Counted from the first letter of the stretch, positions 11,727 to 29,428 are shown. The stretch is 64,000 bases of DNA from an uncultured Candidatus Saccharibacteria bacterium (GCA_964438405.1 CAYTKF010000001.1:18860-82859), one strand, 5' to 3'. The notes: generated from the sequence alone by a model not told the origin. Translations and numbers: made by a program.

Positions 11727-11951
11727 ATGATGAAAACAGGCAAAATAATTATCTTTACTTTTATTTTATTCATTTTTTTCTTTTTTACGCCTCATTCTTT
11801 TGCCGCCACTTCTCCGGATTGGACCATTAATTTCAGTTGGAACGATGTGTCTGTTAATAATAACGGTCAATATGATTTTCCGTTAAATGTTCAAGGAAAC
11901 GGTACTTATACTTGGCTAGGTGGAAGTGCTTATGGTGAGATATATAAATGA
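11727..11951 (+). CDS. Small secreted protein, or the signal-peptide-bearing N-terminal part of the downstream peptidase (ATGA stop/start overlap)
   Basis: Signal peptide IIIFTFILFIFFFFTPHSFAATSP. Its TGA stop overlaps the ATG of the next ORF. Confidence 0.4.
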   Translation: MMKTGKIIIFTFILFIFFFFTPHSFAATSPDWTINFSWNDVSVNNNGQYDFPLNVQGNGTYTWLGGSAYGEIYK

Positions 11952-13282: not shown

Positions 13283-14268
13283 GCAAAAAAATTAAAATTC
13301 TAATAATTTCAATTTTCTTAGTTTTTGCGGTCGCTATAGCTATTTTTTATTTCATAAAACCAACAAAATCAGGATGCTTAAGTGATAACAGTGTGACAAC
13401 TTACGAAAACGATAAAGATAATACTTATATTGTAGTGTCTGACAAAAAAACAGGACAAGAGATAAATCGTTTTCAAATCAAAAATATAATTACTGATCAT
13501 TATCATGGTCAAGAATTACATAAATGTAACTTTTATGTGATAAGACAATTTAATTACGATAGTAAAACAAGACGCAAAACACCAAATTACAGCGCCGAAT
13601 TATGGTCATATAATTATACCCAGAATGGCCTCTCAATTTTAACCTTTAGCAAAACAGACAATAATGGCAATTATCTATTATTTTTTAATGATGACTTCCG
13701 CATTTCTCCTGATGAGAAATATCTTGCTCTTGAAAAAGGTTATGCCGGCCAAGATGATTATTCTATTGTCATTAAAACTCTTTCAGATAAAAAAGATGCT
13801 TTCATAATATCTGCCAAAGAGCTTTCTCAAAAATATCCCGATATTGTCGGGAATTTCGGTCTTAAAGAATGGACAAAAGACGGCAGATATTTTTGGGGAA
13901 ATATTTTTGATGGAGCAGACGTGTTAGCTTTCTTTAGAATAGAAATCGGAACTTGGAAATGGGAAGTATTTGAGGCGCCAGTTGGAACAATGGGCGGAGA
14001 TGTCCTAAATCCCGAATTGGGATATGTTACATATGATGATGGTTCGCCGTGGACAGGATTTGCCGATTTAGACCAAGCGTATCGCGAACAATGGAAAAAA
14101 GAAGGTAAAATTGTTCATTTTTATCTTTATAACTTATTTACAAAAGAGAAAACTCTTTTGGCCACTTATGACGATCCCACCTATTTCACTAAACCCAAAT
14201 GGCTTTCTGACACTCAGCTTCAATACGAAATGCCGAACGGGGAAAAGAGGATTTATGAAATTAAATGA
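13279..14268 (+). CDS. Hypothetical membrane-anchored protein
   Basis: N-terminal TM segment ILIISIFLVFAVAIAIFYFI; 329 aa; no known motif. Confidence 0.4.
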   Translation: MSKKIKILIISIFLVFAVAIAIFYFIKPTKSGCLSDNSVTTYENDKDNTYIVVSDKKTGQEINRFQIKNIITDHYHGQELHKCNFYVIRQFNYDSKTRRKTPNYSAELWSYNYTQNGLSILTFSKTDNNGNYLLFFNDDFRISPDEKYLALEKGYAGQDDYSIVIKTLSDKKDAFIISAKELSQKYPDIVGNFGLKEWTKDGRYFWGNIFDGADVLAFFRIEIGTWKWEVFEAPVGTMGGDVLNPELGYVTYDDGSPWTGFADLDQAYREQWKKEGKIVHFYLYNLFTKEKTLLATYDDPTYFTKPKWLSDTQLQYEMPNGEKRIYEIK

Positions 14269-14290
14269 GTCTTTCATGGGGTTTAATCTT

Positions 14291-14311
14291 CCCCGAGGTT
14301 TAACCTCGGGG
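14291..14311 (+). terminator. Hairpin ccccgaggtt-t-aacctcgggg after the preceding CDS (no clean T-tract)
   Basis: Perfect 10-bp inverted repeat 23 nt after the stop codon. Confidence 0.35.
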
Positions 14312-14320
14312 AGTCTTAAG

Positions 14321-14384
14321 AAATCCTTGCTTCGTTTAAATTTTTGAAGTAGAGTTAATAATTATAAGTTAAACCATTAAACTT
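14321..14384 (+). promoter_or_regulatory. Conserved 64-nt leader/promoter region, copy A (upstream of S8 protease 1)
   Basis: aaatccttgcttcgtttaaatttttgaagtagagttaataattataagttaaaccattaaactt. About 85% identical to 16262..16324. Possible -35 ttgctt and -10 tagagt/tagtat. Confidence 0.5.
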
Positions 14385-16259: not shown

Positions 16260-16261
16260 CC

Positions 16262-16324
16262 AAATCCTTGCTTCGTTTAAGTTTTTGAAGTAGTATTAAG
16301 AATTATAAGTTAAACTATTAAATT
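16262..16324 (+). promoter_or_regulatory. Conserved leader/promoter region, copy B (upstream of S8 protease 2)
   Basis: aaatccttgcttcgtttaagtttttgaagtagtattaagaattataagttaaactattaaatt. Confidence 0.5.
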
Positions 16325-17521
16325 ATGATGAAAAAATACATTGTTTTAGCCTCATTATTGGCCGTATTGGTCGCGGTTTTCTTTCTTGTGGGAACAGTAA
16401 GCGCTCGGGTGGCCATTGATAAAGGTGACTCGCATAAAAGAGTAATTGCTCACAGCGAAGAAGAAATAAGCAAGGCAGTTTCCTTGGGTTGCAGGATTGT
16501 AAGAGAGGCAAGGACGTTAAAAGCGCTTCGCTGTCCACGGGGAGTGGCTGAATCTTTATCGCTTAGTGAAGATGTAAAAGTTTTTGCTTTAGACGATGAG
16601 AAAGTCGGCGTCTTGAAAAGTCCTCAGCCCAGTGCAACGAGTGCCAGCGCCAACCAACAAATCGGCGCTGATATTGTTCATGCTTCCGGAAATACTGGCA
16701 TCGGCAGAAAAATAGTGGTTCTTGATACTGGTTATAACTATAATCATCCTGAATTAAGTTCCAGCTATCTTGACGGTAAAGACTTTGTTAACGACGATAA
16801 CGACCCAATGGATGACGATGGTCATGGCAGCCATGTATCAGGGATTATTACTGCTGATGGAATTAATCCCAAGGCTAAGGGCGTGGCTCCTGATGCAGGA
16901 GTTATCGCAGGCAAAGTACTCGACCAAAACGGCTCGGGCTATTTCAGCGATGTAGTGGCTGGTATTTACTGGGCAATAGACGGACCTGACGGTGTCTATG
17001 GCAATGCTGACGATTTTGGCGCCGATGCAATCAATCTTAGTTTGGGAACCTCTAGACCCTACACTTATAAAGGATTCTGTGACGGAGTTTTGCCTGATCT
17101 TACAAATGCCGTCAAATACGCAGTTGAAAGGAATGTAACTGTGGTGGTGGCTGCTGGGAACAATAGTAGTTCTGGGGTTTCTATTCCTGGTTGCATCAGC
17201 TACTCCACGACAGCTGGTGCTGTTGACAGTAGAGATAGAGTTGCCAGTTTTTCCAGCAAAGGTAATGCTTTAGATATCACTGCTCCTGGGGTAAGTATTT
17301 ATTCTACTGTTTTGGGAAGCGGTTACGCGAGTTGGAGCGGCACCAGTATGGCCACTCCAATGATAAGCGGCGTGGTGGGCCTTGTGAAAAATGCTCATCC
17401 AGCGTACACGCAGGCACAGATTGAAAGCAAACTCTTTAGCACTGCTAAAGATTTGGGCTCAAGAGGGAAAGATACAAGTTACGGCTGGGGCAGAGTAAGA
17501 GCAAATCTAGCTGTTAAGTAA
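16325..17521 (+). CDS. Secreted subtilisin-like serine protease (S8), second copy
   Basis: VVLDTGYNYNHPEL (Asp), HGSHVSGII (His), GTSMATPMISGV (Ser). N-terminal signal anchor. Confidence 0.85.
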   Translation: MMKKYIVLASLLAVLVAVFFLVGTVSARVAIDKGDSHKRVIAHSEEEISKAVSLGCRIVREARTLKALRCPRGVAESLSLSEDVKVFALDDEKVGVLKSPQPSATSASANQQIGADIVHASGNTGIGRKIVVLDTGYNYNHPELSSSYLDGKDFVNDDNDPMDDDGHGSHVSGIITADGINPKAKGVAPDAGVIAGKVLDQNGSGYFSDVVAGIYWAIDGPDGVYGNADDFGADAINLSLGTSRPYTYKGFCDGVLPDLTNAVKYAVERNVTVVVAAGNNSSSGVSIPGCISYSTTAGAVDSRDRVASFSSKGNALDITAPGVSIYSTVLGSGYASWSGTSMATPMISGVVGLVKNAHPAYTQAQIESKLFSTAKDLGSRGKDTSYGWGRVRANLAVK

Positions 17522-17539
17522 AATTATTGAGTGTCCGAT

Positions 17540-17570
17540 AGGGCGTCCGTTAAAAGGGGACGCTCTTTTC
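17540..17570 (+). terminator. Rho-independent terminator after S8 protease 2
   Basis: agggcgtcc-gttaaaagg-ggacgctct followed by tttc. Confidence 0.55.
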
Positions 17571-17834
17571 GTATTTAAGAAAAATATTAAGGACATATAA
17601 AAGACATCATTTTTGACAGAAAATTAAATCTGTTTTTTAACAGTTTTCAACATTTGACAAAAAATTTCCTGTGAGTAGTTTGAGATATATGATGTCCAAT
17701 ACATTTTGGGCAGTAAAATATGGTCAATTAAACGGCCGGGTTCGCGGTTTTTGTGTGGATTCGGTTTTTTTATTTGGAAAAAATAAGGGTCGAACCATTA
17801 AAAGTAAAAAGTAAAAAATTCAATTAAAAAAATT

Positions 17835-18968
17835 ATGAAAAAAATAATAATAATTTTAGGCGGACTGGCATTAGCGTTTGCTTTTGCTACTTCAGTTTCA
17901 GCCGCAACTCCGAATTGGGACATAACAGGAACATGGACATTCAATGATATTTGGTTAGGAACACCCTATGTTCACACAATGACAATTGATTCGTTTAACC
18001 CAGTTACAGGTGAATTTTCAGGGACTGGCTATTATAACTCTAATACAGCTCTTACGTGGAATGTGAATGGAATAGAAAGCGGAAACGATATCACATTATT
18101 CCATTTGCTGGTTATGGCAGTGGCCCCAGGTGTCACTATTGACGGCACAGGCACTATTAATTCATCGGGCACATTTATGAGTGGAACAGGATATCAGTCA
18201 AACCTTCCTGGAGGCGACCCAAATATTGAATGGACAGCGGTGGGAACAGCGACTCTAACAGATAATGATGGTGACGGAGTATTAAACGAAGACGACATTT
18301 GTCCTAATACGACCGCTGACGGGCCTTGGGAAAGTGAAAAAGGTTGGGGGACAAATAGGTGGCAAGTACAAGATAACTGGATGTGGTATCAGAACAAACC
18401 AGCTGGAAAGGGAGTCTATAACCCAACCGCTCTTCACCCAATAGATTACACTTATGGCTGCAACGGCCACCAAATTATCGAAATGCTCAATGGCGTAATG
18501 AACGGCCACTTGAAGTTCGGATTAAGTTCTAGTGTGCTTGATGAATTCCATCTTGATTTGAATGATGGTGTATTGGATGGCAGATATTTTATCGAAACCG
18601 TTACCGTACCAGCCAGCAAATCAACAGATACGCTATCTGCTAATTTTTTAGCGTCGGGAATTAACTATATTCTTAAAGCACGAGGAACAGCTAACGCTGG
18701 TGATAATATTGAATTTGACGCAAAATACAGTTTCCGTACTGGTTCAAGCGTGACATGGACAGATTCTGTATCTAATTATGAGGGTTACGGACCTACGCTT
18801 TTGGATTTGTTTTACAATGGCTCAACACCGTGGGGAGTTTTTAATTTTTCTCATGAGTATGAAGCGGCCGTAACAGGAACCGGAGCAATTGCATCTTTCA
18901 GAATCTACGATGTTTATTATCCGAACAATACAGGTAATTTATATGTAGATATTTATGCCGAGCTGTAG
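17835..18968 (+). CDS. Secreted hypothetical protein with a Ca-binding-like DNDGDGVLNEDD motif
   Basis: Signal peptide LGGLALAFAFATSVSAATP. DxDxDG motif resembles thrombospondin type 3 / calcium-binding repeats. Confidence 0.45.
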   Translation: MKKIIIILGGLALAFAFATSVSAATPNWDITGTWTFNDIWLGTPYVHTMTIDSFNPVTGEFSGTGYYNSNTALTWNVNGIESGNDITLFHLLVMAVAPGVTIDGTGTINSSGTFMSGTGYQSNLPGGDPNIEWTAVGTATLTDNDGDGVLNEDDICPNTTADGPWESEKGWGTNRWQVQDNWMWYQNKPAGKGVYNPTALHPIDYTYGCNGHQIIEMLNGVMNGHLKFGLSSSVLDEFHLDLNDGVLDGRYFIETVTVPASKSTDTLSANFLASGINYILKARGTANAGDNIEFDAKYSFRTGSSVTWTDSVSNYEGYGPTLLDLFYNGSTPWGVFNFSHEYEAAVTGTGAIASFRIYDVYYPNNTGNLYVDIYAEL

Positions 18969-19092
18969 AATTAAATAGAACTCACACGCGTCCTCCATTT
19001 TTTAGAAAAGTGGGGGAGCGCGTGGGCTCTGTAGAGATGTCCACACATAGGAGCAAAGGTCGAATGATTACTAAAGTTAATAAGAAAATTCT

Positions 19093-19719
19093 ATGAAAAA
19101 AATATTAATCTTATCTGCGGTAGTTTTGGCAGTCGGAGTAGTCGCATCAATCGCAGTTGCCGGAACTGGCAACGGCGCTCCTTCAGGCGCGCACTACAAC
19201 CTCAACATCATCGGTGTCCCAAAGAATAAAACCGCTGATATGACCGGCGACAACGGCCACAGAATTTTTGTTTCGCTTTCCGGCAATACCAGGATTAATT
19301 TGACCGAAGGCGATTATCAGGTTTTAGATGCAAACGGAACTGATGGAGTTGCCGCTTTTCAATTGCCAAATCCTGATCCGGATAATGACGAAATAACAGT
19401 TTATTCTGTTTGGGCAAGAGCTGTTGGAAAACCAGGTGGTAGCGCAAAAATGACAACCTGTGCAACAGATCCGAGCGATGGATCAGAAGTCTGTTCTACA
19501 CTTTCTTATGTGGCAGTACGTTCGAAGGGTAAGCCAACATTTGAAAATGTGTCTAAGGAACTTCTTTATATCTACGTTGACCTCGACGGAGATGGGACTG
19601 CGGAACGATATAACTTGTTCAATAGTGCACTAGAAGATTACTTCTGGAGCTACGACAACAACGGCCTAAAGGTTCTCCAGCTTCGCTTCTACGAGATTCC
19701 GACGGACGTAAATCCTTAA
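19093..19719 (+). CDS. Secreted hypothetical protein
   Basis: Signal peptide ILILSAVVLAVGVVASIAVAGTGNG; 208 aa. Confidence 0.45.
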   Translation: MKKILILSAVVLAVGVVASIAVAGTGNGAPSGAHYNLNIIGVPKNKTADMTGDNGHRIFVSLSGNTRINLTEGDYQVLDANGTDGVAAFQLPNPDPDNDEITVYSVWARAVGKPGGSAKMTTCATDPSDGSEVCSTLSYVAVRSKGKPTFENVSKELLYIYVDLDGDGTAERYNLFNSALEDYFWSYDNNGLKVLQLRFYEIPTDVNP

Positions 19720-19730
19720 TTAAATCTACA

Positions 19731-19770
19731 AAAACCCCGCCCCTCGAGATTTTGGTCGGGGCGGGGTTTT
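19731..19770. terminator. Strong intrinsic terminator (potentially bidirectional)
   Basis: aaaaccccgcccc-loop-ggggcggggtttt. Confidence 0.8.
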
Positions 19771-19834: not shown

Positions 19835-21352
19835 ATGTCTAAGTACCCACCTTTTTTAGAGAAAAATATAAAGTTAGGGCTTAATAAAGAGCTATTAAAA
19901 ATCATGCCCCGGGAGCTTATCCTAGAGTTTGATGCTTTTGTTTTTGAAAAAGATTCTGATTCTGGCCTTGTAAAAATTGCTGCGGTAAACCCGGAAAATA
20001 TTGCCTTGAGGCATTATGCAAAAGAAAAGTTCGGCGACAAAGTTGAATGGTTCAGCGCCCAAAAGGAGGACGTAGATTTTATATTAAAAAATCTTAAACG
20101 GGATTTTAAAAACGATATTTTATTTTTAGCCAACAACGTCACCGAGAACAATGAAAATATTACAAAAATTGTTGACGGCATTATAGAATACGCTCTTGCC
20201 CAAAAGGCAAGCGACATTCACATTGAACCATCGAGAAATGAATTTCTTGTGCGATTTAGAATCGACGGCGCCATGCATCAGATGTTAAATTTGCCACGCA
20301 GTATATATCAGGCGCTGGTTGCCCGCATAAAAATAATCGCCAACTTAAGAATTGATGAGTACCGACGCCCCCAGGACGGCCGTATTGAACCCGAAAATTT
20401 TCCCGATATTTCACTCCGCACTTCCATTATACCAACTCTTTTTGGGGAAAAGATCGCCATGCGTATTCTTGACGACTCGCAAAAAGATATTTTGATTGAG
20501 GAACTGGGATTTTCTAAAGAACAAAAAAATATAATTTTACAAAACATAGAAAAACCGTTCGGCATGATTGTTGCCTCGGGCCCCACTGGTTCAGGAAAAA
20601 CTACAACGCTCTATGCTCTTTTACAAATTTTTAAAAAAGACGGATTTAATATTTCTACGCTTGAAGATCCGATTGAATATGTATTACATGGAGTAAACCA
20701 GATTCAGATTAATCTTCAGGTAGGGCTTACTTTTCCAATAGGCCTCCGCTCCCTTTTGAGACAGGACCCGGACATTATGATGGTGGGGGAGATCAGAGAT
20801 ACAGAAACCGCCTCCATGGCTGCCGATGCCGCAATGACAGGCCACATAGTTTTTACCACCCTCCACACCAATGACGCAGCTTCCGCCTTCACCCGTTTTT
20901 TGGAAATGGGGGTTGATGATTTTGTTGTTTCAAGCACGATTAATCTTGTCATTGCCCAACGCCTTGTCCGCAAAATCTGTAATAATTGCGCAGAAAAAAA
21001 AATGCTGGATAAAATAACCATAAAAAAGATTAAAGAACGCAAAGATATCATGGAGGCTCTTCAGGAAAAACAAATTGGATCCCTTAATAAATTTGAGGAG
21101 ATGACTTTTCGCCAAGGCAGGGGATGCGACCTTTGTTTTCAAACAGGATATCTGGGCCGTATCGGGATTTTTGAGCTGTTGACTCCTAATAAAGAAATAC
21201 ATGATTTAATACTGAGCCATAAATCATCGGAAGCCATAAGAGCGGCGGCGGAAAAAAATGGTTTCCGCGACATGATTACCGATGGAATTGACAAAGTATT
21301 TTTGGGAATCACCACTTTTGAAGAGGTTTTGCGGGTCACAAAAAATATTTAG
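19835..21352 (+). CDS. pilB: Type IV pilus / type II secretion assembly ATPase (PilB/GspE family)
   Basis: Walker A ASGPTGSGKTTTLYALL, Asp box and His box (TTLHTND), and C-terminal tetracysteine CNNC...CDLC. Confidence 0.85.
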   Translation: MSKYPPFLEKNIKLGLNKELLKIMPRELILEFDAFVFEKDSDSGLVKIAAVNPENIALRHYAKEKFGDKVEWFSAQKEDVDFILKNLKRDFKNDILFLANNVTENNENITKIVDGIIEYALAQKASDIHIEPSRNEFLVRFRIDGAMHQMLNLPRSIYQALVARIKIIANLRIDEYRRPQDGRIEPENFPDISLRTSIIPTLFGEKIAMRILDDSQKDILIEELGFSKEQKNIILQNIEKPFGMIVASGPTGSGKTTTLYALLQIFKKDGFNISTLEDPIEYVLHGVNQIQINLQVGLTFPIGLRSLLRQDPDIMMVGEIRDTETASMAADAAMTGHIVFTTLHTNDAASAFTRFLEMGVDDFVVSSTINLVIAQRLVRKICNNCAEKKMLDKITIKKIKERKDIMEALQEKQIGSLNKFEEMTFRQGRGCDLCFQTGYLGRIGIFELLTPNKEIHDLILSHKSSEAIRAAAEKNGFRDMITDGIDKVFLGITTFEEVLRVTKNI

Positions 21353-21359
21353 AAAAATT

Positions 21360-22568
21360 ATGGCCGTATTTTCATATAAATTAATAACCCAAAATGGCCA
21401 GATTCAAACAGGCTCTATTTCTGCGCTTACAAAAAGGGGGGCCGAAAAAACACTCACTAAAGACGATTCTATAATTATTTTTATTTCAACCAAAGATCAC
21501 TTCTGGCAGAAACAAATAAATCTTCCCTGGAAGAATTTTTCTTCAACGGAAAAAATAAACTTTTTTCGCGACCTCTCGATGATGATTTCTTCCGGGCTTT
21601 CAATTGTTGAGGCCTTAACTCTTTCGTTTGAAGAGATAAAAAATAATAAAGTAAAAGAAACAATAAAAACAATAGCCAATAACACAAAAAACGGTCAGAG
21701 ATTATCTAAATCAATGGCACAATTTCCGAAATATTTTCCGCAGGATATCGTGGAAACGGTTAATATGGGAGAATTATCAGGCGAGCTCAGCAAGGCGCTC
21801 GGACGCATTGCAAACGACCTAGAAAAAAATGTTGAAATAAAAAGAAAGATTACGGGCGCATTAATGTATCCGGGAATCATTATTTCAATAATGATTATTG
21901 TTGTCACAATTTTATTGTTATATGTTATACCGCAAATCGGAAAAATATACGAAGAGTCAAATATAGAGCTTCCTTTTCTGACAAAAATACTGCTGGTTGT
22001 CGGCAACCTTCTAGCGTCCCATTTATATATCTTTTTGCTGGCATTGGCCGTTGTAATAATCATACCCATTCTTTTATTGAGGATAAAAAAAATACATTAT
22101 GCTTTTAATTATTTAATATTAAAACTGCCTGTTTTCGGAAATATCATTAAGGATTATAATCTGATCCTCTTTTTCCGCTCGATTGAATCTTTAATAAAAA
22201 GCGGAATTTCGCTGGTTGATTCCGTTAATATTGCAAAAAAAACCACTAAAAATGACGTTTATAAAAAGGCTTTTGACACAGTCCACCCCATACTGCTTCG
22301 TGGCATACCTCTTTCCGATATTATGAAACGCTTTCCTTTTTTATTTGCACCCCAAACGCAAAAAATAATAGAAGTTGGCGAAAAGACGGGCAAATTAGAT
22401 AATTCATTCAGCCGGATAACAAACTATTACGAGAACGTATTGGAGCATAAAACAAAAACTATGCTAGTTTTAATTGAGCCGGTATTAATGCTGGTTTTGG
22501 GAATTGTAGTCGGGGGATTGGCACTCTCTATTTTTATGCCGATTTATCAAATCGTCAACGTATTTTAA
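21360..22568 (+). CDS. pilC: Type IV pilus inner-membrane platform protein (PilC/GspF family)
   Basis: Two GspF-type repeats with TM helices. Internal ATG at 21360 chosen because the tracked ORF start at 21282 overlaps pilB. Confidence 0.8.
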   Translation: MAVFSYKLITQNGQIQTGSISALTKRGAEKTLTKDDSIIIFISTKDHFWQKQINLPWKNFSSTEKINFFRDLSMMISSGLSIVEALTLSFEEIKNNKVKETIKTIANNTKNGQRLSKSMAQFPKYFPQDIVETVNMGELSGELSKALGRIANDLEKNVEIKRKITGALMYPGIIISIMIIVVTILLLYVIPQIGKIYEESNIELPFLTKILLVVGNLLASHLYIFLLALAVVIIIPILLLRIKKIHYAFNYLILKLPVFGNIIKDYNLILFFRSIESLIKSGISLVDSVNIAKKTTKNDVYKKAFDTVHPILLRGIPLSDIMKRFPFLFAPQTQKIIEVGEKTGKLDNSFSRITNYYENVLEHKTKTMLVLIEPVLMLVLGIVVGGLALSIFMPIYQIVNVF

Positions 22569-22570
22569 AT

Positions 22571-23005
22571 ATGAAAAAGACAAATGGTTTTTCTCTTATT
22601 GAAATAATTACCGTTATCGGTATTATGGGCGTAGTTGCAGCCACTGGATTTATGACCTTTAGGGGAATTAAAGATGATATTATTTTGGAGCAAACAAAGA
22701 CAACCTTGGTTTGGGCTTTAGAGGAGGCCCGGAACCGGGCCGCAACCGGATTTGGACAAAATAAACAAGGAGTTCATATAGAAGAAAATAAAATTGTGAT
22801 TTTTGAAGGAGATGAATATGTTGATGGCGAGGGAGAAGAAATAATTTTTCCTCCAACCATATCAACCGACCAAACTAACGGCAATATTATATTTAACCGG
22901 ATTAGCGCATCAGTTAACACGGCTGCCACAATTATTATTAATAATATAAAAGGCAGTACAAAAATTATTAATATTACTTCAGATGGAAAAATCATCGCTC
23001 AATAA
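22571..23005 (+). CDS. Type IV pilin / pseudopilin (prepilin N-terminal cleavage-methylation domain)
   Basis: MKKTNG|FSLIEIITVIGIMGVVAA matches the class III signal G|F(S/T)LIE. Confidence 0.7.
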   Translation: MKKTNGFSLIEIITVIGIMGVVAATGFMTFRGIKDDIILEQTKTTLVWALEEARNRAATGFGQNKQGVHIEENKIVIFEGDEYVDGEGEEIIFPPTISTDQTNGNIIFNRISASVNTAATIIINNIKGSTKIINITSDGKIIAQ

Positions 23006-23495
23006 AAAAGGGGGTTTTGGAATAATAGAGGTCGTTGTTGGAATTACTCTTGCCTCCGTATTTATGACAGCCTTCGCGGCATTAACCGTGCAAACTATCA
23101 AACTTAATCGCGCCAACACAAACGAACTCAAGGCAAATATATATTTAAGAGAACTTATTGAGATTGCGAAAGATCTTGAACAGTCAGAAGACTGGAATAT
23201 ATTAACCGATTATCCTTGCCAAGAATCTTTAGGTCGGGTCTGTTATCCCAAAATTTCAAGTGGAAAATGGATTTTGACTACAGGCGCAGAATCACTTGAT
23301 AATGACATATATAATCGTTCGCTTACCATTGCCGATGTTTATCGGAACCAGCTTTCATTCCCCAATGAGATAGTGGCAAGCGGAGGCGTTTCTGACCCAA
23401 ACACAAAAAAAATAATTGCAAAAATTTTATGGAGTGATGGCAGCCATCCCCCAATGATACTTGAGACATATGTTTATAATTATATCGCGCCGTAA
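22983..23495 (+). CDS. Pilin-like protein (minor pilin candidate)
   Basis: KGGFGIIEVVVGITLASVFM prepilin-like N-terminus. Confidence 0.55.
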   Translation: MEKSSLNKKGGFGIIEVVVGITLASVFMTAFAALTVQTIKLNRANTNELKANIYLRELIEIAKDLEQSEDWNILTDYPCQESLGRVCYPKISSGKWILTTGAESLDNDIYNRSLTIADVYRNQLSFPNEIVASGGVSDPNTKKIIAKILWSDGSHPPMILETYVYNYIAP

Positions 23496-23500
23496 TCTTT

Positions 23501-23962
23501 ATGTTTATAAAAAAATTATTTAAAAACAATAATTTCGGATTCACCATAATAGAAACAATTGTTGCGCTCGGCCTGGGCGTTCTTGTCGTGACCGCTGTTA
23601 CGACCATTGTTCTTCCCGGACTCAAGAACATACGCGCCGCCACTCAAACCGAAAGACTGCATGCAAACGCGGTATTTTTGCTGAACAATTTAACTTATTG
23701 GATAAAACAAGCCGAAGATCTCAATACGCCTAGCCCGTCTGTACTTGAAATTAAACTTTCCGATTCTTCGGTAAAAATTATTAAAAAAGACGGCGACAAT
23801 ATAACAGCTGACAATATTCCCCTTAATAATAATGATGTTAAGATAATAGAGCTTAATTTCACAAAGATGGCAAAATCGGTGAAAATTGATTTGGTTATTA
23901 AAACTGAAAAAGGAGAAACATTTTCCATTAAAACAACCATTGCACAAAGAAACAAACTTTAA
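23501..23962 (+). CDS. Pilin-like protein (minor pilin candidate)
   Basis: NNFGFTIIETIVALGLGVLVV prepilin-like N-terminus. Confidence 0.55.
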   Translation: MFIKKLFKNNNFGFTIIETIVALGLGVLVVTAVTTIVLPGLKNIRAATQTERLHANAVFLLNNLTYWIKQAEDLNTPSPSVLEIKLSDSSVKIIKKDGDNITADNIPLNNNDVKIIELNFTKMAKSVKIDLVIKTEKGETFSIKTTIAQRNKL

Positions 23963-23966
23963 AATT

Positions 23967-25049
23967 ATGCCATCTTATAAAAAAGACAAAGGAATAATAA
24001 GTTTAATTACTATATTGACTGTAGGTCTTTTCTCGTTAAGCGCCGTAATAATAAGCGAAATGGGCGCACTTAAGGAACTGGCAAAAAATCGCAATAATAT
24101 GATGGGAGAGAAATCTTTTTATGCCGCCGAGACCGCTACCAGAGAGGGGGCTTATCAATATCTAAACAACACTTCCTATTCGGGAGGTGCCCTGCTCTCT
24201 ATTAATAATGTCTTAGACAGCTCTAATATTGTTGATGATGACTCTTTGCCCTGGCCGTATGTGGAGATAATCGGGGCCGCGGAAAACGAGACCAATCATC
24301 GCGAAGTCATACATAAAATTACTGTGTTCCCCGAGGGCCAGGCTTTTAGTTATGCCGTCTACTCGCAAAACAGCATTAGTTTTGGCGGAAACGCCACTGT
24401 AAATGGAGATATTTTTGCCAACAACAACATAAATTTTAACGGCCAAAGCGCAACAATTAACGGAAACGCCTTTTCTATTAACGAAATAGATGACACAGAT
24501 AATATAAATGGAGAGGCCGTTTTGGTGAAATCAGTAATTTCAGCGCCCCAAATTGACACTCAGTCCTATAAAGACGTTGCCGTATTTGCAGAAACATTTT
24601 TCACTTCTTCAAGCGACGCAGAAAACTATATTAACAACAATACAAGAACAGCGGTTGTATTTGTTGAAGACAGTAATGAGACAAAAATACATGGCACTAA
24701 TACCAAACTATCAGGAAGTTTGGTTGTAAGTGGCGATTTGGAAATCAGCGGAGGCACTTATACGGCAACTGATAATTACGCCGCAATTATAGTTGGCGGC
24801 AATCTTAAAATATCAGGAGGGGCGATAATCAACGGAATAGTTTATGTGTCAGGTTCTACAGCATTTGGTGGAGGAAATAATGTAATTAATGGTTCGCTTC
24901 TTTCTACAAATGGGGCAAGTATTGCAGATATCACAGGCAGTACTGTTATTAATTTTGATCCAGACAATATAGGAGCTTGGCAGGATCTTGAGGGGTTGAT
25001 AACCACCTCTACTCAAGACCCAGAAATTGTTGATTGGCTAGAACGATAA
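23967..25049 (+). CDS. Pilus-associated protein with an N-terminal pilin-like hydrophobic segment and beta-helix-like repeats
   Basis: Internal start MPSYKKDKGIISLITILTVGLF. Repetitive GGNATVNGDIFANNNINFNGQSATINGNAFSIN. Confidence 0.4.
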   Translation: MPSYKKDKGIISLITILTVGLFSLSAVIISEMGALKELAKNRNNMMGEKSFYAAETATREGAYQYLNNTSYSGGALLSINNVLDSSNIVDDDSLPWPYVEIIGAAENETNHREVIHKITVFPEGQAFSYAVYSQNSISFGGNATVNGDIFANNNINFNGQSATINGNAFSINEIDDTDNINGEAVLVKSVISAPQIDTQSYKDVAVFAETFFTSSSDAENYINNNTRTAVVFVEDSNETKIHGTNTKLSGSLVVSGDLEISGGTYTATDNYAAIIVGGNLKISGGAIINGIVYVSGSTAFGGGNNVINGSLLSTNGASIADITGSTVINFDPDNIGAWQDLEGLITTSTQDPEIVDWLER

Positions 25050-25075
25050 AGACTTGACAAATAATTATAAGGGTT

Positions 25076-25106
25076 TAATTTGATAAATAGAGATTTAATC
25101 AAATTA
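25076..25106. promoter_or_regulatory. Near-perfect 13/14-bp-arm inverted repeat upstream of the giant adhesin gene (candidate operator)
   Basis: taatttgataaat-agag-atttaatcaaatta; the arms are reverse complements with a 1-nt indel. Confidence 0.35.
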
Positions 25107-25131
25107 TTAACAATAAAAACCGATAATTTAT

Positions 25132-28100
25132 ATGAAAAATTTTAATTCCCGGGCAGCTAACGCAATTTTACTGGCCGTATCAATGGTCGTTTACATAATA
25201 GCGCCGGTTTTGTCATTTGCTCCGCAAGTATCTTATGCGACCCAACCTGTCAGTAGTTATATTGTTTCTATAGATACTATTAATGACGATCCTCCGACAG
25301 AGGCCTGTCTTGTTAGTCCTGTGACAATTATCGGAAGCGGACAAGTTATAAACGGACAAGGAAGCGGTTCTGATCAATACCACATTGAGATTAATTGGGG
25401 AGACGGCACCCTAGAAAATGGAATTGTAATTAATCCAACACCGGATCCGGGAGGCGACAAGAAAACTTTTTCCTTTAGCTATACCGCAACTCACAGTACT
25501 TCAGTTACCAGCACACAAATTAAAGTACGTCTCTATCACGGTGCTCCCCCGGGCAACGACGCCCAAGCTGATGCCGTGATAAGTGTCTCTGTCTGCGTTG
25601 CTCCACCCACCACCGCGGTTCTCAATGTTAAAAAGATTGTCGTTAATAATAACGGTGGTACAGCTACGTCCTCAGACTTCACCCTGCGGTTAAAATCAGC
25701 CACCACAACTAACGATATCAGCGGAAGCCCTTTTTCCGGTTCAACCGCGGGTAAAGATTTTATTTTGAGCCCAGGCCCTTATGTTGCCGGCGAAGATGCT
25801 TTTTCGGGCTATAGTTCAGCAATTACCGGTAATTGCGCCGCAGACGGAACCATTACTCTGTCAGCCGGACAAAATTATTCCTGCACCATTACCAATACTG
25901 AATTACCACCAACTCCCACTACTGGTTCTATTTCCGGTAAAAAGTTTGAAGATTTGAACGGCGACCACGTGCGAACCAATGAGACTACTGATCCTGACTT
26001 GCCCGACTGGACAATCCGGCTTGATTTGATTGGCAGTTCTGACGCTCCGAATTGCGAATCGGGTCAAACTCCAGTAGCCTCGGTCAATGGAGAGTTCTGC
26101 GAAGTTTTGACTGATTCTAATGGTAATTACAAATTTATTAATCTGCTTCCGGGCGACTACATAGTTTCCGAAGTTTTACAGGATGGCTGGACACAGACAA
26201 GACCAAATGCAGATTACGGAGGCCAAGGTAGACAAGCTGATGGTACTTACCATTTAACTCTTTCTGCCGGACAGAATATTAATGACAGACAGTTTGGCAA
26301 CAAACAATCGCCCACTACCGGCAGTCTACAGGTTGATAAAGTTGCAATTGGCGGAGACAGCATGTTTAGTTTTACCGGAGATAACGGAATAACTGGTTTT
26401 GACATTACAACCAGCGGAGGTACTGGCAGTCTTACAATCAGCGATCTTCTTCCGGGAGTTTATAATATTTTTGAAACAATTAAGGCTGGTTGGGACGAAT
26501 TAAATGATTGCACTAACGTCAATGTGACTGTTGGTAATACAACGAATTGCACTTTTACCAACACAGCGCGCGGCTCTATTACGGTTCACAAAAATGTGGT
26601 TGCACCGGACGGACAAACTGATGTTTCAGACAACCATAATTTTACCGTGACGCTTAATGGCGATAATTCCCAAACACTTAACGAAACAACATCGGTATCT
26701 TACACAGACCTTATTCCTAATCAGCAATATACTGTTACAGAAGATATGGATTCTGATTACAGCCAAGTTTCTATCACTGGCGATTGCGTTTCTGACGGCA
26801 CCATCACATTGAATCCCGGACAGGACGCTGTCTGCACCATCACCAATGCGCAAAAACAGGGGACACTTACAGTCATTAAACATGTAATCAATCACGGCAT
26901 TGGCACTGCTGACGCAAATGATTTTTCGTTCATAATAAATGATGGACAGCCAACAGCGTTTACAGCAGACGAAGGAAGTCTTGAAGGACAAAATACAATT
27001 GCAGTTGACCCGGGAACTTACACAGTGAGCGAACCTTCAGTGCAGGGCTATGCCGCAAGTTATAACAATTGCACCGACGTGGCGATTCCAAGCAACGGTT
27101 CTGCCACCTGCACCATTACCAACAGCGATATTCCTCCGGGCGACGGCGCAATTACTGTTTTTAAGACTTTGCCGAATGACAATGGAGGCACAGCAACGGT
27201 TGCTGATTTCCCGCTCTGGATTACAGATTCTGATGACCCGCAAAATCCCATCTCTGCTGCAAACGGCCAGGCAAATTTCTTAGCGGCTGGCCATAATTAT
27301 ACTGTAAGCGAAACAAATCCTAATGAAATTCTTGGTTATAACCAAAGCATCAGCTGTTATGACGGGCAAACTCCGCTTGACGGCAGTACAATCACTGTTG
27401 TTGAAAACCATGTTTACACTTGCACCATTACCAATGACGACATGCCTGTTTCTTTGACGCTTAATAAAACAGTGATCACTGACAACGGGGGCACAGCCCA
27501 GGCATCAGACTGGACTCTTACTGCAAAAGGACCGATAACCTTAAGCGGTGTTGGCCCGACAGTTTCCAGCACAACTCTTTCAGCAGGCACTTATACGCTT
27601 TCTGAATCAAGCGGACCGACTGGCTATACAGCAAGTAATTGGTCATGTCAGGGAGGAACCTTAAATGGCGATGTTCTTACGCTTGTCCTTGGCGACAATG
27701 CAACCTGCGGTATTACTAATGACGACCAGCCCAGTTATATTTCCGGCGCGAAGTTTGAAGATGTTAATTACAATAAAATTTGGGACGATGGAGAAACTGG
27801 AATTGTTGGTTGGGTAATAAATCTGTTTAAAGAACAGCAGCTTGTTGCCTCTACAACCACTGGCGAAGTTGGAACTTATCAGTTTACTAATGTTTCTCCC
27901 GGAACATACACACTCACGGAAACAGCACAGGACGGATGGATTCAGACAACTGACGCACCTGCTCCAATAGATATGACTCAAGGCACAACTTCTGCAAATA
28001 ATAATTTTGGCAATTACAAAAAGATTGTCATATCAAATGAAAATTCTCAAGATCCAACAGAAACTTCTGTTGTCATAACTTGGGATACTGACAGACCGGC

Positions 28101-28755
28101 AACTTCACGCGTAATTTATGACACAGTTTCGCACGCAATTCTTGGCGATGCGCCGAATTACGGATACGCGTTTTCAACGATTGAGGACACTGCAACAACA
28201 ACCAGCCATTCTGTTACAATAACCGGTTTGGCGGCCGGCACTACTTATTATTACCGCGTAATTTCTCACGCTTCGCCCGAATCAGTGAGTTCTGAACACA
28301 ACTTTTCTACTGTCCAACAGCAAACTCCGCCTTCTAGTGGACCAGTTGGCGGCGGTGGTGGAGGTGGTGGAGGTGGTGGAGGTAATGGACCTGTTGGAGA
28401 TCTTTTATCTTTAACAACCCCTCCAACTCCCACAAATCCTCCAGTTAGCGGACCGGTTATAACCACAACTGGCGCAGGAGAAGAAAATCCAACTCCTCCA
28501 ACACCTCCAGTTCCAACAGGAGAAGGAGCAGGAATTACAGGAGAAATCGGCGCTAACACAGGTGGCGCAACAACTAGCGAAGAAACTGGCAATAATCTTG
28601 CCGCAGCAGCTGCAAGCCAGGAAAACGGTAGAAGCTTTGGCAGTATGCTCGCCTCTGTCTTTGGCGCAATCGGAAGCTGGTGGTGGCTGCTCCTGCTCAT
28701 CATTATCTTAATCATCATCTGGCTCATAAAACGTTCTCTGGACAAAAAGAATTAA
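25132..28755 (+). CDS. Giant cell-surface adhesin-like protein: signal peptide, repeated SdrD/Cna-B-like and Ig-like domains, FN3-like domain, poly-Gly/Pro-Thr stalk, C-terminal TM anchor
   Basis: 1207 aa. Recurring GKKFEDLNGDH...NGNYKF.NLLPGDY.VSE..GW modules (Cna B/SdrD-B-like), G14 run, PTPPTP stalk, C-terminal WWWLLLLIIILIIIWLIKR. Confidence 0.6.
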   Translation: MKNFNSRAANAILLAVSMVVYIIAPVLSFAPQVSYATQPVSSYIVSIDTINDDPPTEACLVSPVTIIGSGQVINGQGSGSDQYHIEINWGDGTLENGIVINPTPDPGGDKKTFSFSYTATHSTSVTSTQIKVRLYHGAPPGNDAQADAVISVSVCVAPPTTAVLNVKKIVVNNNGGTATSSDFTLRLKSATTTNDISGSPFSGSTAGKDFILSPGPYVAGEDAFSGYSSAITGNCAADGTITLSAGQNYSCTITNTELPPTPTTGSISGKKFEDLNGDHVRTNETTDPDLPDWTIRLDLIGSSDAPNCESGQTPVASVNGEFCEVLTDSNGNYKFINLLPGDYIVSEVLQDGWTQTRPNADYGGQGRQADGTYHLTLSAGQNINDRQFGNKQSPTTGSLQVDKVAIGGDSMFSFTGDNGITGFDITTSGGTGSLTISDLLPGVYNIFETIKAGWDELNDCTNVNVTVGNTTNCTFTNTARGSITVHKNVVAPDGQTDVSDNHNFTVTLNGDNSQTLNETTSVSYTDLIPNQQYTVTEDMDSDYSQVSITGDCVSDGTITLNPGQDAVCTITNAQKQGTLTVIKHVINHGIGTADANDFSFIINDGQPTAFTADEGSLEGQNTIAVDPGTYTVSEPSVQGYAASYNNCTDVAIPSNGSATCTITNSDIPPGDGAITVFKTLPNDNGGTATVADFPLWITDSDDPQNPISAANGQANFLAAGHNYTVSETNPNEILGYNQSISCYDGQTPLDGSTITVVENHVYTCTITNDDMPVSLTLNKTVITDNGGTAQASDWTLTAKGPITLSGVGPTVSSTTLSAGTYTLSESSGPTGYTASNWSCQGGTLNGDVLTLVLGDNATCGITNDDQPSYISGAKFEDVNYNKIWDDGETGIVGWVINLFKEQQLVASTTTGEVGTYQFTNVSPGTYTLTETAQDGWIQTTDAPAPIDMTQGTTSANNNFGNYKKIVISNENSQDPTETSVVITWDTDRPATSRVIYDTVSHAILGDAPNYGYAFSTIEDTATTTSHSVTITGLAAGTTYYYRVISHASPESVSSEHNFSTVQQQTPPSSGPVGGGGGGGGGGGGNGPVGDLLSLTTPPTPTNPPVSGPVITTTGAGEENPTPPTPPVPTGEGAGITGEIGANTGGATTSEETGNNLAAAAASQENGRSFGSMLASVFGAIGSWWWLLLLIIILIIIWLIKRSLDKKN

Positions 28756-28787: not shown

Positions 28788-29192
28788 ATGTCTTACCAAG
28801 AGGCAGTTAGTTTTTTAAGAAGATTGGATAAGGAAATAAGAATATGCCATCCAGGCACCGGCAAAGAGATGCCCTGCGATGAAGTGCTTCGGGACCTTTC
28901 TTGGGAAGAATGGAAGACTGTAGAAGAAATTATCAAAAAACACAAACTTCCGTGTTCTCTTGTGAGCGGTCCGTATGGATTTTCTTTGATAATATATTCT
29001 TTTAAAAAAGATATATTGCTTCTTATTAAAAATGTCCAGTTTCCATTTTTGTCCGCAAAACGCGGTTTTAACGGTCAGCTGGATACACTTCATAGGATTT
29101 CTCCGCTGACCCACAACCAGCAAAATATTGACCTTCTTGCGGCTCTGCATTTTGAACCGCAAAATCTCAACCCTTTATCTTACGCCTATTAG
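28788..29192 (+). CDS. Hypothetical protein
   Basis: 134 aa. Good RBS (ggaggtg) 7 nt upstream. No recognisable motif. Confidence 0.35.
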   Translation: MSYQEAVSFLRRLDKEIRICHPGTGKEMPCDEVLRDLSWEEWKTVEEIIKKHKLPCSLVSGPYGFSLIIYSFKKDILLLIKNVQFPFLSAKRGFNGQLDTLHRISPLTHNQQNIDLLAALHFEPQNLNPLSYAY

Positions 29193-29213: not shown

Positions 29214-29248
29214 GGGCGCTGTGCGAAGCAATGCACAGGCCCTTTTTT
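29214..29248 (+). terminator. Intrinsic terminator
   Basis: gggcgctgtgc-gaagcaat-gcacaggccc followed by tttttt. Confidence 0.65.
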
Positions 29249-29304: not shown

Positions 29305-29428
29305 GTGACCCGGTTCAGCTTGAGCACGTGAAGTACAGCGTGAGCTGGACAATGGGTCCGGCTGGGAGTGCCCTCGTAATCCCCCAGCCGCAATCATCCG
29401 AGCCCCGATGAAACTGTCGGGGCTTTCA
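29305..29428 (+). ncRNA. Unidentified GC-rich structured RNA element (three hairpins plus terminator). Either a regulatory 5' leader/attenuator of proS or an independent small RNA
   Basis: Local GC is about 58% against AT-rich flanks. Helices gacccg/tgggtc, cagct/agctg, cggctggg/cccagccg. Terminal hairpin agccccga-tgaaactg-tcggggct followed by a U-rich tract. Candidate promoter ttgaaa-17-tagaag at 29277..29305. Confidence 0.4.

Follow-up and report, generated by a model that had tools for sequence, protein, structure and literature searches.

The window, by which we mean the whole 64-kb stretch of DNA analysed, contains a type IV filament gene cluster of an uncultured, ultra-small CPR bacterium, and the interval 19835-28755 probably comprises two separate things, namely a conserved operon for the priming and tip subunits of a pilus and a separately promoted gene for a membrane-anchored fibril. 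The first of these, 19835-25049, is a conserved six-gene operon of Paceibacteria-class CPR bacteria. The second is a variable neighbour with a putative promoter of its own and not a conserved member of the locus. Beyond one cultivated Saccharibacterium, little is known about the ways in which uncultured CPR bacteria locate their hosts and stay attached to them, and our analysis moves the focus from the giant repeat protein to an unnamed, conserved family of beta-solenoid tip pilins encoded in the fixed six-gene cassette. Overall, the system is of an ordinary kind among the pilus and surface-protein loci of the CPR, with the addition of one previously undescribed tip-pilin family.

Gene content and recurrence of the pilus cassette

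Analysis of ORFs and Pfam matches confirmed, within 19835-28755, the gene order and coordinates given in a preliminary description of this DNA, with pilB, pilC, three prepilin genes, a gene for a beta-helical pilin-like protein and the gene for a 1207-aa repeat protein. That description had also assumed a CPR-type organism, and NCBI proteins identical to those of the window are indeed named Parcubacteria group bacterium Athens0714_24. The features of the cassette are as follows.

19731..19770, plus strand: GC-rich hairpin AAAACCCCGCCCC...GGGGCGGGGTTTT, the strongest inverted repeat (13/14) among 25 intergenic regions
19835..21352, plus strand: PilB/GspE-family assembly ATPase, 505 aa (Pfam T2SSE, E 3.9e-118)
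21360..22568, plus strand: PilC/GspF platform protein, 402 aa (Pfam T2SSF in two stretches, E 6e-51)
22571..23005, plus strand: pilin 1, GspH/FimU-class minor prepilin, 144 aa, G/FSLIE (N_methyl match; FimU/GspH fold)
22983..23495, plus strand: pilin 2, prepilin in PilV/GspI position, 170 aa, G/FGIIE (N_methyl, E 0.0013)
23501..23962, plus strand: pilin 3, prepilin in PilW/GspJ position, 153 aa, G/FTIIE (N_methyl, E 0.00093)
23967..25049, plus strand: ComZ/GspK-like putative tip subunit, 360 aa (weak Pfam match to an ice-binding-like adhesive domain; structure model)

PilB is the sole T2SSE protein of the window, scoring 394.7 bits against a Pfam cutoff of 24.9, and in NCBIfam it matched GspE (468 bits) and PilB (463 bits), both under the equivalog cutoffs. 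PilC reached 172 bits with T2SSF in Pfam and 265 bits with GspF in NCBIfam. Three ORFs display a class III signal peptide (G/F...E5) with a hydrophobic N-terminal helix; the same number matched N_methyl, pilin 1 alone exceeding the Pfam cutoff, and the Glu of the G/F-x-x-x-E motif is invariant across the aligned syntenic orthologues of the three prepilins. The model of pilin 1 has an N-terminal helix of 51 residues. Pilin 2, whose reading frame overlaps that of pilin 1 by 23 nt, gave a weak PilV match in NCBIfam, and its eight syntenic orthologues share an invariant E, two invariant Cys forming a Cys pair, and a conserved C-terminus. Pilin 3 showed weak ComGE and Ppd matches, its eight orthologues having invariant G and E residues and an invariant T..RN at the C-terminus. 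The subclass of pilins 2 and 3 is a putative one, taken from gene position and sub-threshold matches only.

Intergenic distances inside the cassette range from -23 to +7 nt, and these, together with the GC-rich hairpin upstream at 19731-19770, indicate an operon. A terminator-like site overlapping this hairpin was also listed by the scan; the hairpin is probably the terminator of the preceding gene and marks the upstream edge of the pilus operon. The six-gene cassette was found at 13 other distinct CPR loci, the same gene order and sizes being present in L002, L003, L005, L085-L088, L093-L095, L097, L099, L102, L103, and L105, and the nearest relatives of PilB come from Niyogibacteria, Spechtbacterales, Paceibacterota, and Nealsonbacteria.

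As to the remaining pilus components, neither the 64-kb window nor the 10 kb around any of 14 cassette loci contains an extra prepilin motif that would indicate a major pilin, and PilD and PilT are absent within 10 kb of every cassette examined. Each cassette locus has, over that distance, one T2SSE gene, and its prepilins are the three of the cassette only. Pfam scans covering most of the other window ORFs of at least 90 aa gave no match to Peptidase_A24 or PilM/N/O/Q; a few genes for ribosomal proteins, MurG, RNA polymerase alpha, and ABC-ATPases were judged by their N-terminal sequences in place of the Pfam scan, and an FtsA-like match of ORF 2373-3548 was marginal (E 0.097). The absence of PilT and a prepilin peptidase from the window, as reported earlier, agrees with the single T2SSE protein and the lack of an A24 match among the scanned ORFs. 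Of the description of a compact type IV pilus locus, the filament cluster stands, while the complete system does not, as pilin 1 is a minor pilin and genes for a major pilin, PilD, and PilT are all missing within 10 kb; since these three are missing nearby, we regard the cassette as a priming and tip module and not as a whole pilus locus. The PilT/PilU retraction ATPase and the PilM-N-O alignment complex of a retractile type IVa pilus were not found, as the window and each cassette locus have a single T2SSE protein and the scanned window ORFs no member of the PilM/N/O families.

The 1207-aa surface protein and its upstream region

Downstream of the cassette, the following features were recorded.

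25054..25081, plus strand: promoter-like TTGACA, 16 nt, TAATTT, read from the sequence, with a putative function
25076..25106, no strand assigned: AT-rich inverted repeat TAATTTGATAAA-N7-TTAATCAAATTA, overlapping the putative -10 hexamer and the region of the start site
25132..28755, plus strand: 1207-aa surface fibril (Pfam, internal repeats, Cys pairs, hydrophobic ends)
28354..28383, plus strand: perfect, in-frame 9-nt tandem repeat (GGTGGTGGA)x3.3, encoding most of the Gly run (Tandem Repeats Finder)
28788..29192, plus strand: 134-aa ORF beginning 32 nt past the surface-protein gene, with no Pfam or NCBIfam match

The surface protein consists of a signal-like leader, a small, disulfide-bounded ‘WGDG’ domain (residues 37-165), nine SpaA/SdrD-type repeats, an FN3-like domain, a Gly12/Pro-Thr stalk, and a TM segment serving as anchor, which is followed by the basic tail KRSLDKKN. 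Pfam matched SpaA_2 five times (E 2.4e-56, 188.8 bits), SpaA (76.2 bits), SdrD_B (54.6 bits), and Pur_ac_phosph_N/fn3; these repeats, with no enzyme domain among the matches, uphold the earlier proposal of adhesin modules. A signal peptide, a stalk, and a C-terminal TM anchor had likewise been proposed and were recovered as a hydrophobic signal-like segment, a Gly- and Pro-Thr-rich stalk, and a TM segment; the run of 14 Gly reported with them turned out to be 12 consecutive G. There are 16 Cys, and seven repeat domains have one Cys pair each. The WGDG domain, the sole unannotated part of the protein, has no sequence match in Pfam or the PDB and is shared with five homologues.

Homologues of the surface protein are repeat proteins of CPR bacteria. 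The C-terminal anchor is common to P0008, P0041, P0081, and P0098, and an LPxTG-like motif ends 30 of 120 homologues. The prealbumin-like repeats (SpaA_2, SpaA, SdrD_B, and SpaA_4) recall Gram-positive SpaA/Cna-B/SdrD surface proteins, such as MSCRAMM-like proteins and sortase pilins, as does the placement of the repeats behind a distinct N-terminal domain. Unlike the Gram-positive proteins, however, the window protein has no LPXTG in its tail and ends with a Gly-rich hydrophobic segment, a TM helix, and basic residues; the window ORFs that were scanned include no sortase family. A PilY1-type adhesin was also considered and rejected in view of the missing PilY1 or propeller match, the C-terminal TM anchor, and the position outside the conserved cassette. 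The 134-aa ORF has no homologue at 80 PilB loci; it is possibly co-transcribed with the surface-protein gene, and terminator-like hairpins lie downstream of it at 29219-29238 and 29400-29425.

Promoter-like hexamers precede the surface-protein gene, and we infer from them that it may be transcribed from a promoter of its own. In its relatives, TTGACA is found 75-117 nt upstream of the ATG, and L083 reads TTGACAAATAAT, as does the window; a second candidate pair, TTGATA (25080), 16 nt, AATTAT (25107), was listed by the scan. The inverted repeat, previously given as 13/14, was found at the location described, though its arms (25076-25087 and 25095-25106) are 11/12 complementary when ungapped, or pair at 13 positions around a single bulge when folded; it ends 25 nt upstream of the ATG. 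It may be tentatively proposed as an operator through which a putative repressor controls the surface-protein gene, an idea that we rate as less likely than not. When the 82-nt spacer was shuffled by mononucleotides 2000 times, only 19 shuffles matched the strength of the repeat, and over all 25 intergenic regions three such repeats were observed against 0.13 expected, the other two being GC-rich terminator hairpins; among the top inverted repeats of the window, this one alone is AT-rich. Within it lie the second promoter-like pair, the expected start site, and the putative -10 (TAATTT, 16 nt past TTGACA). Since it folds poorly as an RNA hairpin (z -1.45) and has no T-run, it is not a terminator of this genome's usual type, which again would suit an operator. 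Against this, the pattern occurs once in 64 kb, where 0.18 occurrences are expected by chance and 16 of 100 shuffles match, and in a spacer of 18% GC a partial symmetry of AT-rich -35-like and -10-like hexamers easily arises. The repeat is also absent from every relative examined, all of them distant, both after the tip gene and before related surface-protein genes, and the Pfam and NCBIfam scans revealed no adjacent regulator gene.

The pilus and the 1207-aa protein had initially been regarded as the likely host-attachment apparatus; that the large protein is the dedicated adhesin of this pilus, co-expressed with it and working on the filament itself or necessarily together with it, we consider unlikely after comparison of the loci. 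The two are on the same strand and 82 nt apart, and no terminator hairpin separates them in this window, so that co-transcription by read-through is possible; in most relatives of the cassette, a terminator hairpin follows immediately 3' of the beta-helix gene. A SpaA-type gene downstream of the cassette was found in the window and in L094 only (2/13 loci), that of L094 encoding a SpaA_4/SpaA_2 protein, and is absent in the other 11. Among these is L085, whose tip gene is 61% identical and which is thereby the closest relative; it has a peptidase and a TSP_1 protein instead. With both flanks counted, SpaA-type proteins are present at three of 13 loci, the third being L097, where the gene for a SpaA/SdrD/TSP_3 protein is divergent from pilB. 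No homologue of the window protein is encoded within 10 kb of any of 80 PilB loci. Five of six of its relatives lie away from any pilus genes, as do those sharing its N-terminal domain, and one of the six lies near them; P0008, the best architectural match, adjoins a different T2SSE/T2SSF/N_methyl cluster. This neighbourhood, the SpaA-type flanks at 3/13 loci, and the large surface proteins of other families flanking several cassette loci, where secreted proteins are often abundant, make a loose functional link plausible. Because of its own TTGACA box, Sec-type leader, and membrane anchor, the protein is ill-suited as a pilus-borne adhesin, and it has no pilin-like N-terminus. In the reading with two separate things, the product of 25132-28755 would be exported by the Sec route and anchored in the membrane by its C-terminus, as a fibril with about eleven Ig-like domains. 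It would belong to the many variable surface proteins often encoded on the flanks of the cassette and probably acts, without the pilus filament, as a cell-bound adhesin of short range.

The putative beta-solenoid tip subunit and its possible role

The beta-helix protein encoded at the end of the cassette is a likelier pilus-borne binding module than the 1207-aa protein. Its structure model, rated confident, supports the preliminary assignment as a pilin combined with a beta-helix, as does structure comparison: a hydrophobic N-terminal pilin-type helix of 62 residues without Glu5 leads into a small pilin-type beta-sheet, and to this GspK-like pseudopilin domain a large triangular beta-solenoid of the ice-binding type is joined. 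The order of elements is a sheet at 73-119, the solenoid at about 130-330, a helix, and a conserved last strand at 354-359. Glu5 is missing throughout 51 family members, whose soluble part has a pI of 4.05-4.65; that of the window protein has a pI of 4.1, with 13 K+R vs 38 D+E. The family comprises 94 clusters at E<=1e-30 and 487 at E<=1e-10.

A close parallel in gene arrangement is the pilA1-pilA2-pilA3-comZ locus of Thermus thermophilus, all four genes of which are needed for transformation and not for piliation, ComZ being a DNA-binding protein (PMC6561018). ComZ combines a GspK-like domain with an FfIBP-like solenoid (PMC6561018). In a tip pilin of the ComZ type, the solenoid interrupts the pilin sheet ahead of its last strand, an arrangement with which the order of elements in the window protein would be compatible, and the protein binds DNA as well as the minor pilin encoded next to it. 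In both loci, three small minor pilins, the first of the GspH/FimU class, are followed by a larger pilin-like protein without canonical features, and the window tip subunit shares with ComZ (6QVI) the GspK-like pseudopilin domain and the ice-binding-type triangular beta-solenoid. The two proteins nevertheless differ in size (554 aa in ComZ, 360 aa here), there is no detected sequence similarity, and the window family is very acidic; furthermore, the window genes form one operon with pilB and pilC, and no equivalent of the major pilin gene pilA4 follows. The bacterium of the window, moreover, belongs to the CPR and is taken to be single-membraned, in which it differs from Thermus thermophilus. 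Foldseek TM-scores to ComZ were low (0.22-0.34), and a search of the family profile against all PDB sequences did not recover ComZ (6qvi), its sole return being the tapirin 4WA0 (E 2.7e-4, covering parts of the helix). In view of these low scores and the lack of detected sequence similarity, the solenoid on its pilin scaffold may have arisen by convergence and not by kinship with ComZ. The tapirins of Caldicellulosiruptor (4WA0, 6N2B, 6N2C) are attachment proteins with a beta-helical fold whose genes lie close to a T4P locus; the published abstract does not present them as pilins, whereas the window protein starts with its pilin-type helix. Cellulose binding is unlikely to be relevant to the window protein.

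Within the CPR, Nanosynbacter lyticus TM7x has large PilX-type pilins that bear accessory domains and have no PilD signal, one of which, PilX2, is required for efficient binding to the host (PMC11623550). The pilus genes of its T4P-1 and T4P-2 are likewise spread over several loci, and PilX1 and PilX2 resemble the window tip subunit as large PilX-type minor pilins whose C-terminal accessory domain is proposed as a tip adhesin. These domains are, however, a beta-jelly roll (PilX1) and a beta-propeller (PilX2), in place of a beta-solenoid, and TM7x belongs to the Saccharibacteria, in contrast to the Paceibacteria of the window system. Four consecutive pilin-like genes are also found as GspH-GspI-GspJ-GspK of the T2SS and FimU-PilV-PilW-PilX of the T4aP; by comparison, the window is without PilY1, PilE, and GspG, its pilins 2 and 3 are placed by position only, and its tip subunit has a solenoid replacing the alpha-domain of GspK.

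By analogy with GspH-I-J-K, FimU-PilVWX, and Thermus PilA1-3/ComZ, we infer that the four pilin-like proteins, namely a FimU/GspH-class minor pilin, two prepilins, and the solenoid subunit in PilX/GspK position, probably form a priming complex. Powered by the PilB-type ATPase, this complex would start filament growth on the PilC platform and end at the filament tip, where the bulky beta-solenoid would be exposed to bind a ligand. Genes for the major pilin and the prepilin peptidase, and for a retraction ATPase if there is one, must then lie in other parts of the genome. As ligand, a host-surface molecule is favoured over DNA, since the soluble part is acidic family-wide and both tapirins and TM7x PilX2 act in attachment.

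The cassette could instead build a competence pilus for DNA uptake, with the solenoid subunit as a ComZ-like DNA receptor feeding nucleotide-poor CPR cells, a view that we hold to be improbable. It draws on the order of three minor pilins and a solenoid protein, which mirrors that in Thermus, and on hints from the TM7x study that one of its pili takes up DNA (PMC11623550). The acidic pI of 4.05-4.65 is a weak argument against unspecific DNA binding; further, sequence homology points to a tapirin-type adhesin and not to ComZ, PilB scores far higher as GspE/PilB than as ComGA, and ComEC, ComEA, and DprA genes were not seen in the gene tables of the cassette flanks. Much less probable still is the notion of a GspH-I-J-K-type pseudopilus machine of single-membrane CPR cells that would export or display its neighbours, both the giant, hypervariable surface proteins and the secreted enzymes, the slot after the tip gene being a cargo or host-range cassette; this variable slot holds SpaA-type, TSP_1, HYR, and CAP proteins, among others. 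Its more general form, in which a type II secretion-like pseudopilus of a single-membrane cell would push or display neighbouring secreted proteins, such as proteases, CAP proteins, and giant repeat proteins, through the wall or S-layer without building an external pilus, is highly improbable. In its favour, GspE and GspF are by a slight margin the top scores of the ATPase and the platform, the pilin set has an H-, I-, J-, and K-like composition with a major pilin missing from the vicinity, and the flanks are enriched in secreted proteins, which in the window are a C39-like protein and two proteases of the S8 family and in relatives M10-like, CAP, VWA, PKD, DUF11, and TSP proteins. Against it, the GspE and PilB scores are essentially tied, GspC, L, M, G, and D components were not found in the scanned window ORFs, T4P filaments have been directly seen on a CPR bacterium with homologous gene sets (PMC11623550), and a bulky solenoid tip is typical of receptor pilins (PMC6561018).

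In a less radical version, the acidic solenoid tip-pilin family of the conserved priming and tip operon might conceivably be the host-specificity determinant of Paceibacteria that co-diversifies with the flanking surface proteins. The family structurally joins ComZ, a DNA receptor, with the tapirins, which are attachment proteins, and it yields a soluble domain for DNA, glycan, and host-cell binding assays as well as a comparative-genomics marker of host range.

Gene order and conservation of the pilus cassette

The ORF map and Pfam searches agreed with the gene order of the preliminary description, pilB-pilC-three pilins-beta-helix protein-large repeat protein, all on the forward strand:

Features of the pilus locus (window positions)
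19731-19770: GC-rich terminator-type hairpin, preceding the cassette
19835-21352, + strand: PilB-type ATPase (Pfam T2SSE, E 3.9e-118)
21360-22568, + strand: PilC platform (two T2SSF stretches, Pfam)
22571-23005, + strand: pilin 1 (prepilin N-terminus)
22983-23495, + strand: pilin 2 (prepilin N-terminus)
23501-23962, + strand: pilin 3 (prepilin N-terminus)
23967-25049, + strand: tip subunit, 360 aa (weak ice-binding-like adhesive-domain match, Pfam)
25132-28755, + strand: large repeat protein, 1207 aa (five SpaA_2 stretches, SpaA, SdrD_B and an FN3/Pur_ac_phosph_N domain, Pfam)

From pilB to the 360-aa ORF the intergenic gaps are -23 to +7 nt, and the identical six-gene order, with similar gene sizes, was present in 13 other distinct loci (cassette loci L002, L003, L005, L085-L088, L093-L095, L097, L099, L102, L103 and L105; L092 is a duplicate of L085, and L098 and L099 are one sequence). 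The unit conserved among them comprises six genes rather than seven. The closest PilB relatives, at 55-62% identity, belong to Niyogibacteria, Spechtbacterales, Paceibacterota and Nealsonbacteria MAGs; since these are CPR genomes and the identical NCBI proteins are those of Parcubacteria group bacterium Athens0714_24, the assignment to the CPR is correct. In L102 the cassette PilB gene lies in three fragments (5645-7263), representing a pseudogene or a sequencing frameshift.

The cassette provides an ATPase, a platform, prepilins and a subunit with a tip fold, and is locally without a major pilin, PilD or PilT. As had been noted before, PilT and PilD are missing from the window: the scanned ORFs included a single T2SSE protein, no Peptidase_A24 and no member of the PilM, PilN, PilO or PilQ families. 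Neither the window nor the 10-kb flanks of any cassette locus contained a second ATPase or a further prepilin. The overlapping ORFs 2373-3548 and 3529-4725, each of roughly 390 aa, had no family match; the former, with a marginal FtsA-type actin-fold match (E 0.097), might encode a divergent PilM/FtsA-like protein, a possible but unsupported reading of its sequence.

The beta-solenoid tip subunit and its pilins

A word-indexed search placed the tip subunit in a family of 51 CPR proteins with 36-61% identity, and an exhaustive profile search extended it to 94, 487 and 3168 representative clusters at E<=1e-30, 1e-10 and 1e-3, mostly without a Pfam domain and none with an informative name. Scanning metagenomes with the single tip-pilin sequence retrieved zero relatives, while the family alignment as query retrieved 17 loci. 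Glu5 is absent in all 51 family members. The structural model was confident (pLDDT 91.1, pTM 0.81): an N-terminal helix of 62 residues leads into a small sheet and a long beta-solenoid, and the chain closes with a conserved strand. The model's best Foldseek match was ComZ, a pilin associated with competence in Thermus thermophilus (E 3e-6). Its fold likenesses are the very pair published for ComZ, namely a GspK-like domain and an FfIBP-like solenoid (PMC6561018). In T. thermophilus, comZ is placed after three minor-pilin genes, and ComZ has been argued to be a pilus-tip DNA receptor (PMC6561018). The resemblance lies in the tip fold and not in sequence homology: compared with PDB sequences, the family profile did not detect ComZ, and its sole match was the tapirin-type "possible adhesin" 4wa0 (E 2.7e-4). 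Tapirins are attachment proteins whose genes lie close to the T4P locus in Caldicellulosiruptor. Our literature search found no link between ComZ, or any solenoid pilin, and the CPR. A useful by-product of this analysis is a widespread and previously undescribed family of beta-solenoid tip pilins.

NCBIfam searches aligned pilin 1 over its full length with PpdA and ComGD, though below threshold, and on its predicted fold it is a GspH/FimU-class minor pilin and not the filament subunit; this fold rules it out as the major pilin. Pilins 2 and 3 keep the G|F-x-x-x-E motif, its Glu being invariant in the orthologue alignments. By position and weak matches only, they would be PilV/GspI-like and PilW/GspJ-like, respectively; regarding their subclass, profile searches against PDB sequences matched only the shared N-terminal helix.

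The cassette can be likened to the GspH-I-J-K, FimU-PilVWX and PilA1-3/ComZ priming sets. The tip subunit and pilins 1-3 most likely form a priming complex on PilC, powered by PilB, which would then cap a filament built from a major subunit encoded elsewhere, with the beta-solenoid as the exposed binding module; we infer the placement at the tip, the order of assembly and the ligand. The tip subunit also resembles the PilX-type tip pilins of TM7x, the one studied CPR bacterium, which has large minor pilins, PilX1 and PilX2, without a PilD signal and with accessory domains, PilX2 being required for host binding (PMC11623550). The soluble part of the tip-subunit family is very acidic (pI 4.05-4.65; 13 K+R versus 38 D+E in the window protein). 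Because of this charge and of the tapirin and PilX2 parallels, a host-surface ligand of the beta-solenoid appears more likely than DNA. Conversely, the ComZ parallel would speak for a cassette serving competence, with the solenoid subunit as DNA receptor, which we consider improbable given the acidic soluble part across the family and the two parallels pointing to a host surface.

The large repeat protein downstream of the cassette

The locus is a combination of CPR type IV pilus genes and a CPR surface fibril, both of known kinds. The 1207-aa protein starts with a hydrophobic leader, continues with seven repeat domains with one Cys pair each and a Gly/Pro-Thr-rich stalk, and ends with a TM helix and a basic tail, without any LPXTG. 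Its repeat modules, FN3-like domain, stalk and TM anchor had been recognized correctly, while the reported G14 run comprises 12 residues; Pfam assigned adhesin-type modules and not an enzyme. At 28354-28383, a perfect 9-nt tandem repeat, (GGTGGTGGA)x3.3, specifies the Gly12 run in frame; slippage there would alter stalk length in steps of three residues without shifting the frame. The architecture ruled out a PilY1-like or pilin-like pilus component.

Almost all homologues were multi-repeat proteins of CPR metagenomes, none of those found being a close full-length orthologue. The N-terminal "WGDG" domain, common to five of them, had zero Pfam matches even at E<=5 and zero PDB sequence matches. 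An LPxTG-like motif ends 30 of 120 homologues. In its place, P0008, P0041, P0081 and P0098 share the ending encoded by 28600-28755 (a hydrophobic segment rich in Gly and Ala, a TM helix rich in Trp, Leu and Ile, and a Lys/Arg tail), which might serve as a sorting or anchoring signal specific to the CPR. The 1397-aa homologue P0070 (L084, GCA_964564925.1), with an FN3/Pur_ac_phosph_N module, is encoded amid the archaeal-type ribosomal genes L31e and S19e; therefore, this surface-protein architecture also occurs in an archaeon.

This gene lies outside the conserved cassette, as the downstream gene differs between cassette loci. Among 13 with readable downstream sequence, only the window and L094 carry a SpaA-type gene there; L085 has a peptidase followed by a TSP_1 protein, L088 an HYR/Ig-like protein, L102 a CAP protein, and the remainder unrelated or opposite-strand genes. 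A terminator hairpin is usual directly 3' of the tip gene in relatives (L005, L086, L087, L088, L094), and in L085 and L088 the following gene carries a promoter of its own. Only one of six relatives of the large protein, P0008 (L082), has pilus genes nearby, of a different cluster type. In L082 (3265-18007), this cluster (T2SSE of 440 aa, T2SSF of 362 aa, an LVIVD-repeat protein of 513 aa and N_methyl proteins) faces, in convergent orientation, a tandem pair of SpaA-type giants (1280 and 1331 aa), the second directly followed by an extra prepilin gene.

In the window, the tip gene and the large gene are not separated by a terminator. The 82-nt spacer between them has TTGACA 78 nt 5' of the ATG; relatives of the large gene have TTGACA 75-117 nt upstream, L083 reading TTGACAAATAAT as the window does. 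Secreted or surface proteins, drawn from many families, are often abundant in the cassette flanks. The relation may, thus, be a loose functional neighbourhood with some read-through from the tip gene. Directly upstream of the pilus operon, 11948-19719 is a run of secreted-protein genes: a C39-like peptidase, a protein of 329 aa, two S8 subtilases, one with fn3 and, as in the large protein, a Pur_ac_phosph_N-type domain, and two uncharacterized secreted proteins (377 and 208 aa). The 377-aa protein (17835-18968), with a marginal thrombospondin type 3 repeat match, has a homologue (E 5.7e-63) in L095 (2598-3767, - strand), divergent from pilB, and may be a second recurring cassette neighbour.

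The spacer inverted repeat and other features

The inverted repeat previously described as 13/14 bp is real, though it pairs 25076-25087 with 25095-25106 at 11 of 12 positions, or forms 13 pairs with one bulge. It ranks third-strongest among 25 intergenic regions, was matched in 19 of 2000 spacer shuffles, and starts at a putative -10 TAATTT, 16 nt after TTGACA, with a second promoter-like pair inside. Across the cassette loci, half-sites turned up at just three dispersed positions, none of them in the spacer 3' of the tip gene, and equivalent positions lacked the repeat in all relatives, which are too distant for a fair comparison. An operator is plausible but doubtful, and the comparison lends it no support. 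An intrinsic terminator was rejected, as the repeat is AT-only, the sole AT-rich one among the top three, has no T-run and forms a weak RNA hairpin (fold z -1.45), unlike the two GC-rich hairpins ranking with it and those elsewhere in the window; a regulon motif failed, a second window copy being absent even with 3 mismatches. Rfam yielded only one tRNA in the whole window, and so no known RNA element in the spacer.

Two small paralogues, 10931-11593 (-) and 48177-48734 (+), match the PaaX central Cas2-like domain (E 7.9e-23 and 1.9e-25) and, weakly, CRISPR_Cas2; neither a CRISPR array nor further cas genes came to notice. A perfect 213-nt direct repeat (55165-55377 and 55748-55960, 100% identity, spacing 583 nt), which may reflect either a genuine duplication or an artefact of MAG assembly, flanks the gene for ribosomal protein S13 (55341-55751), and both copies contain the first 37 nt of the gene.
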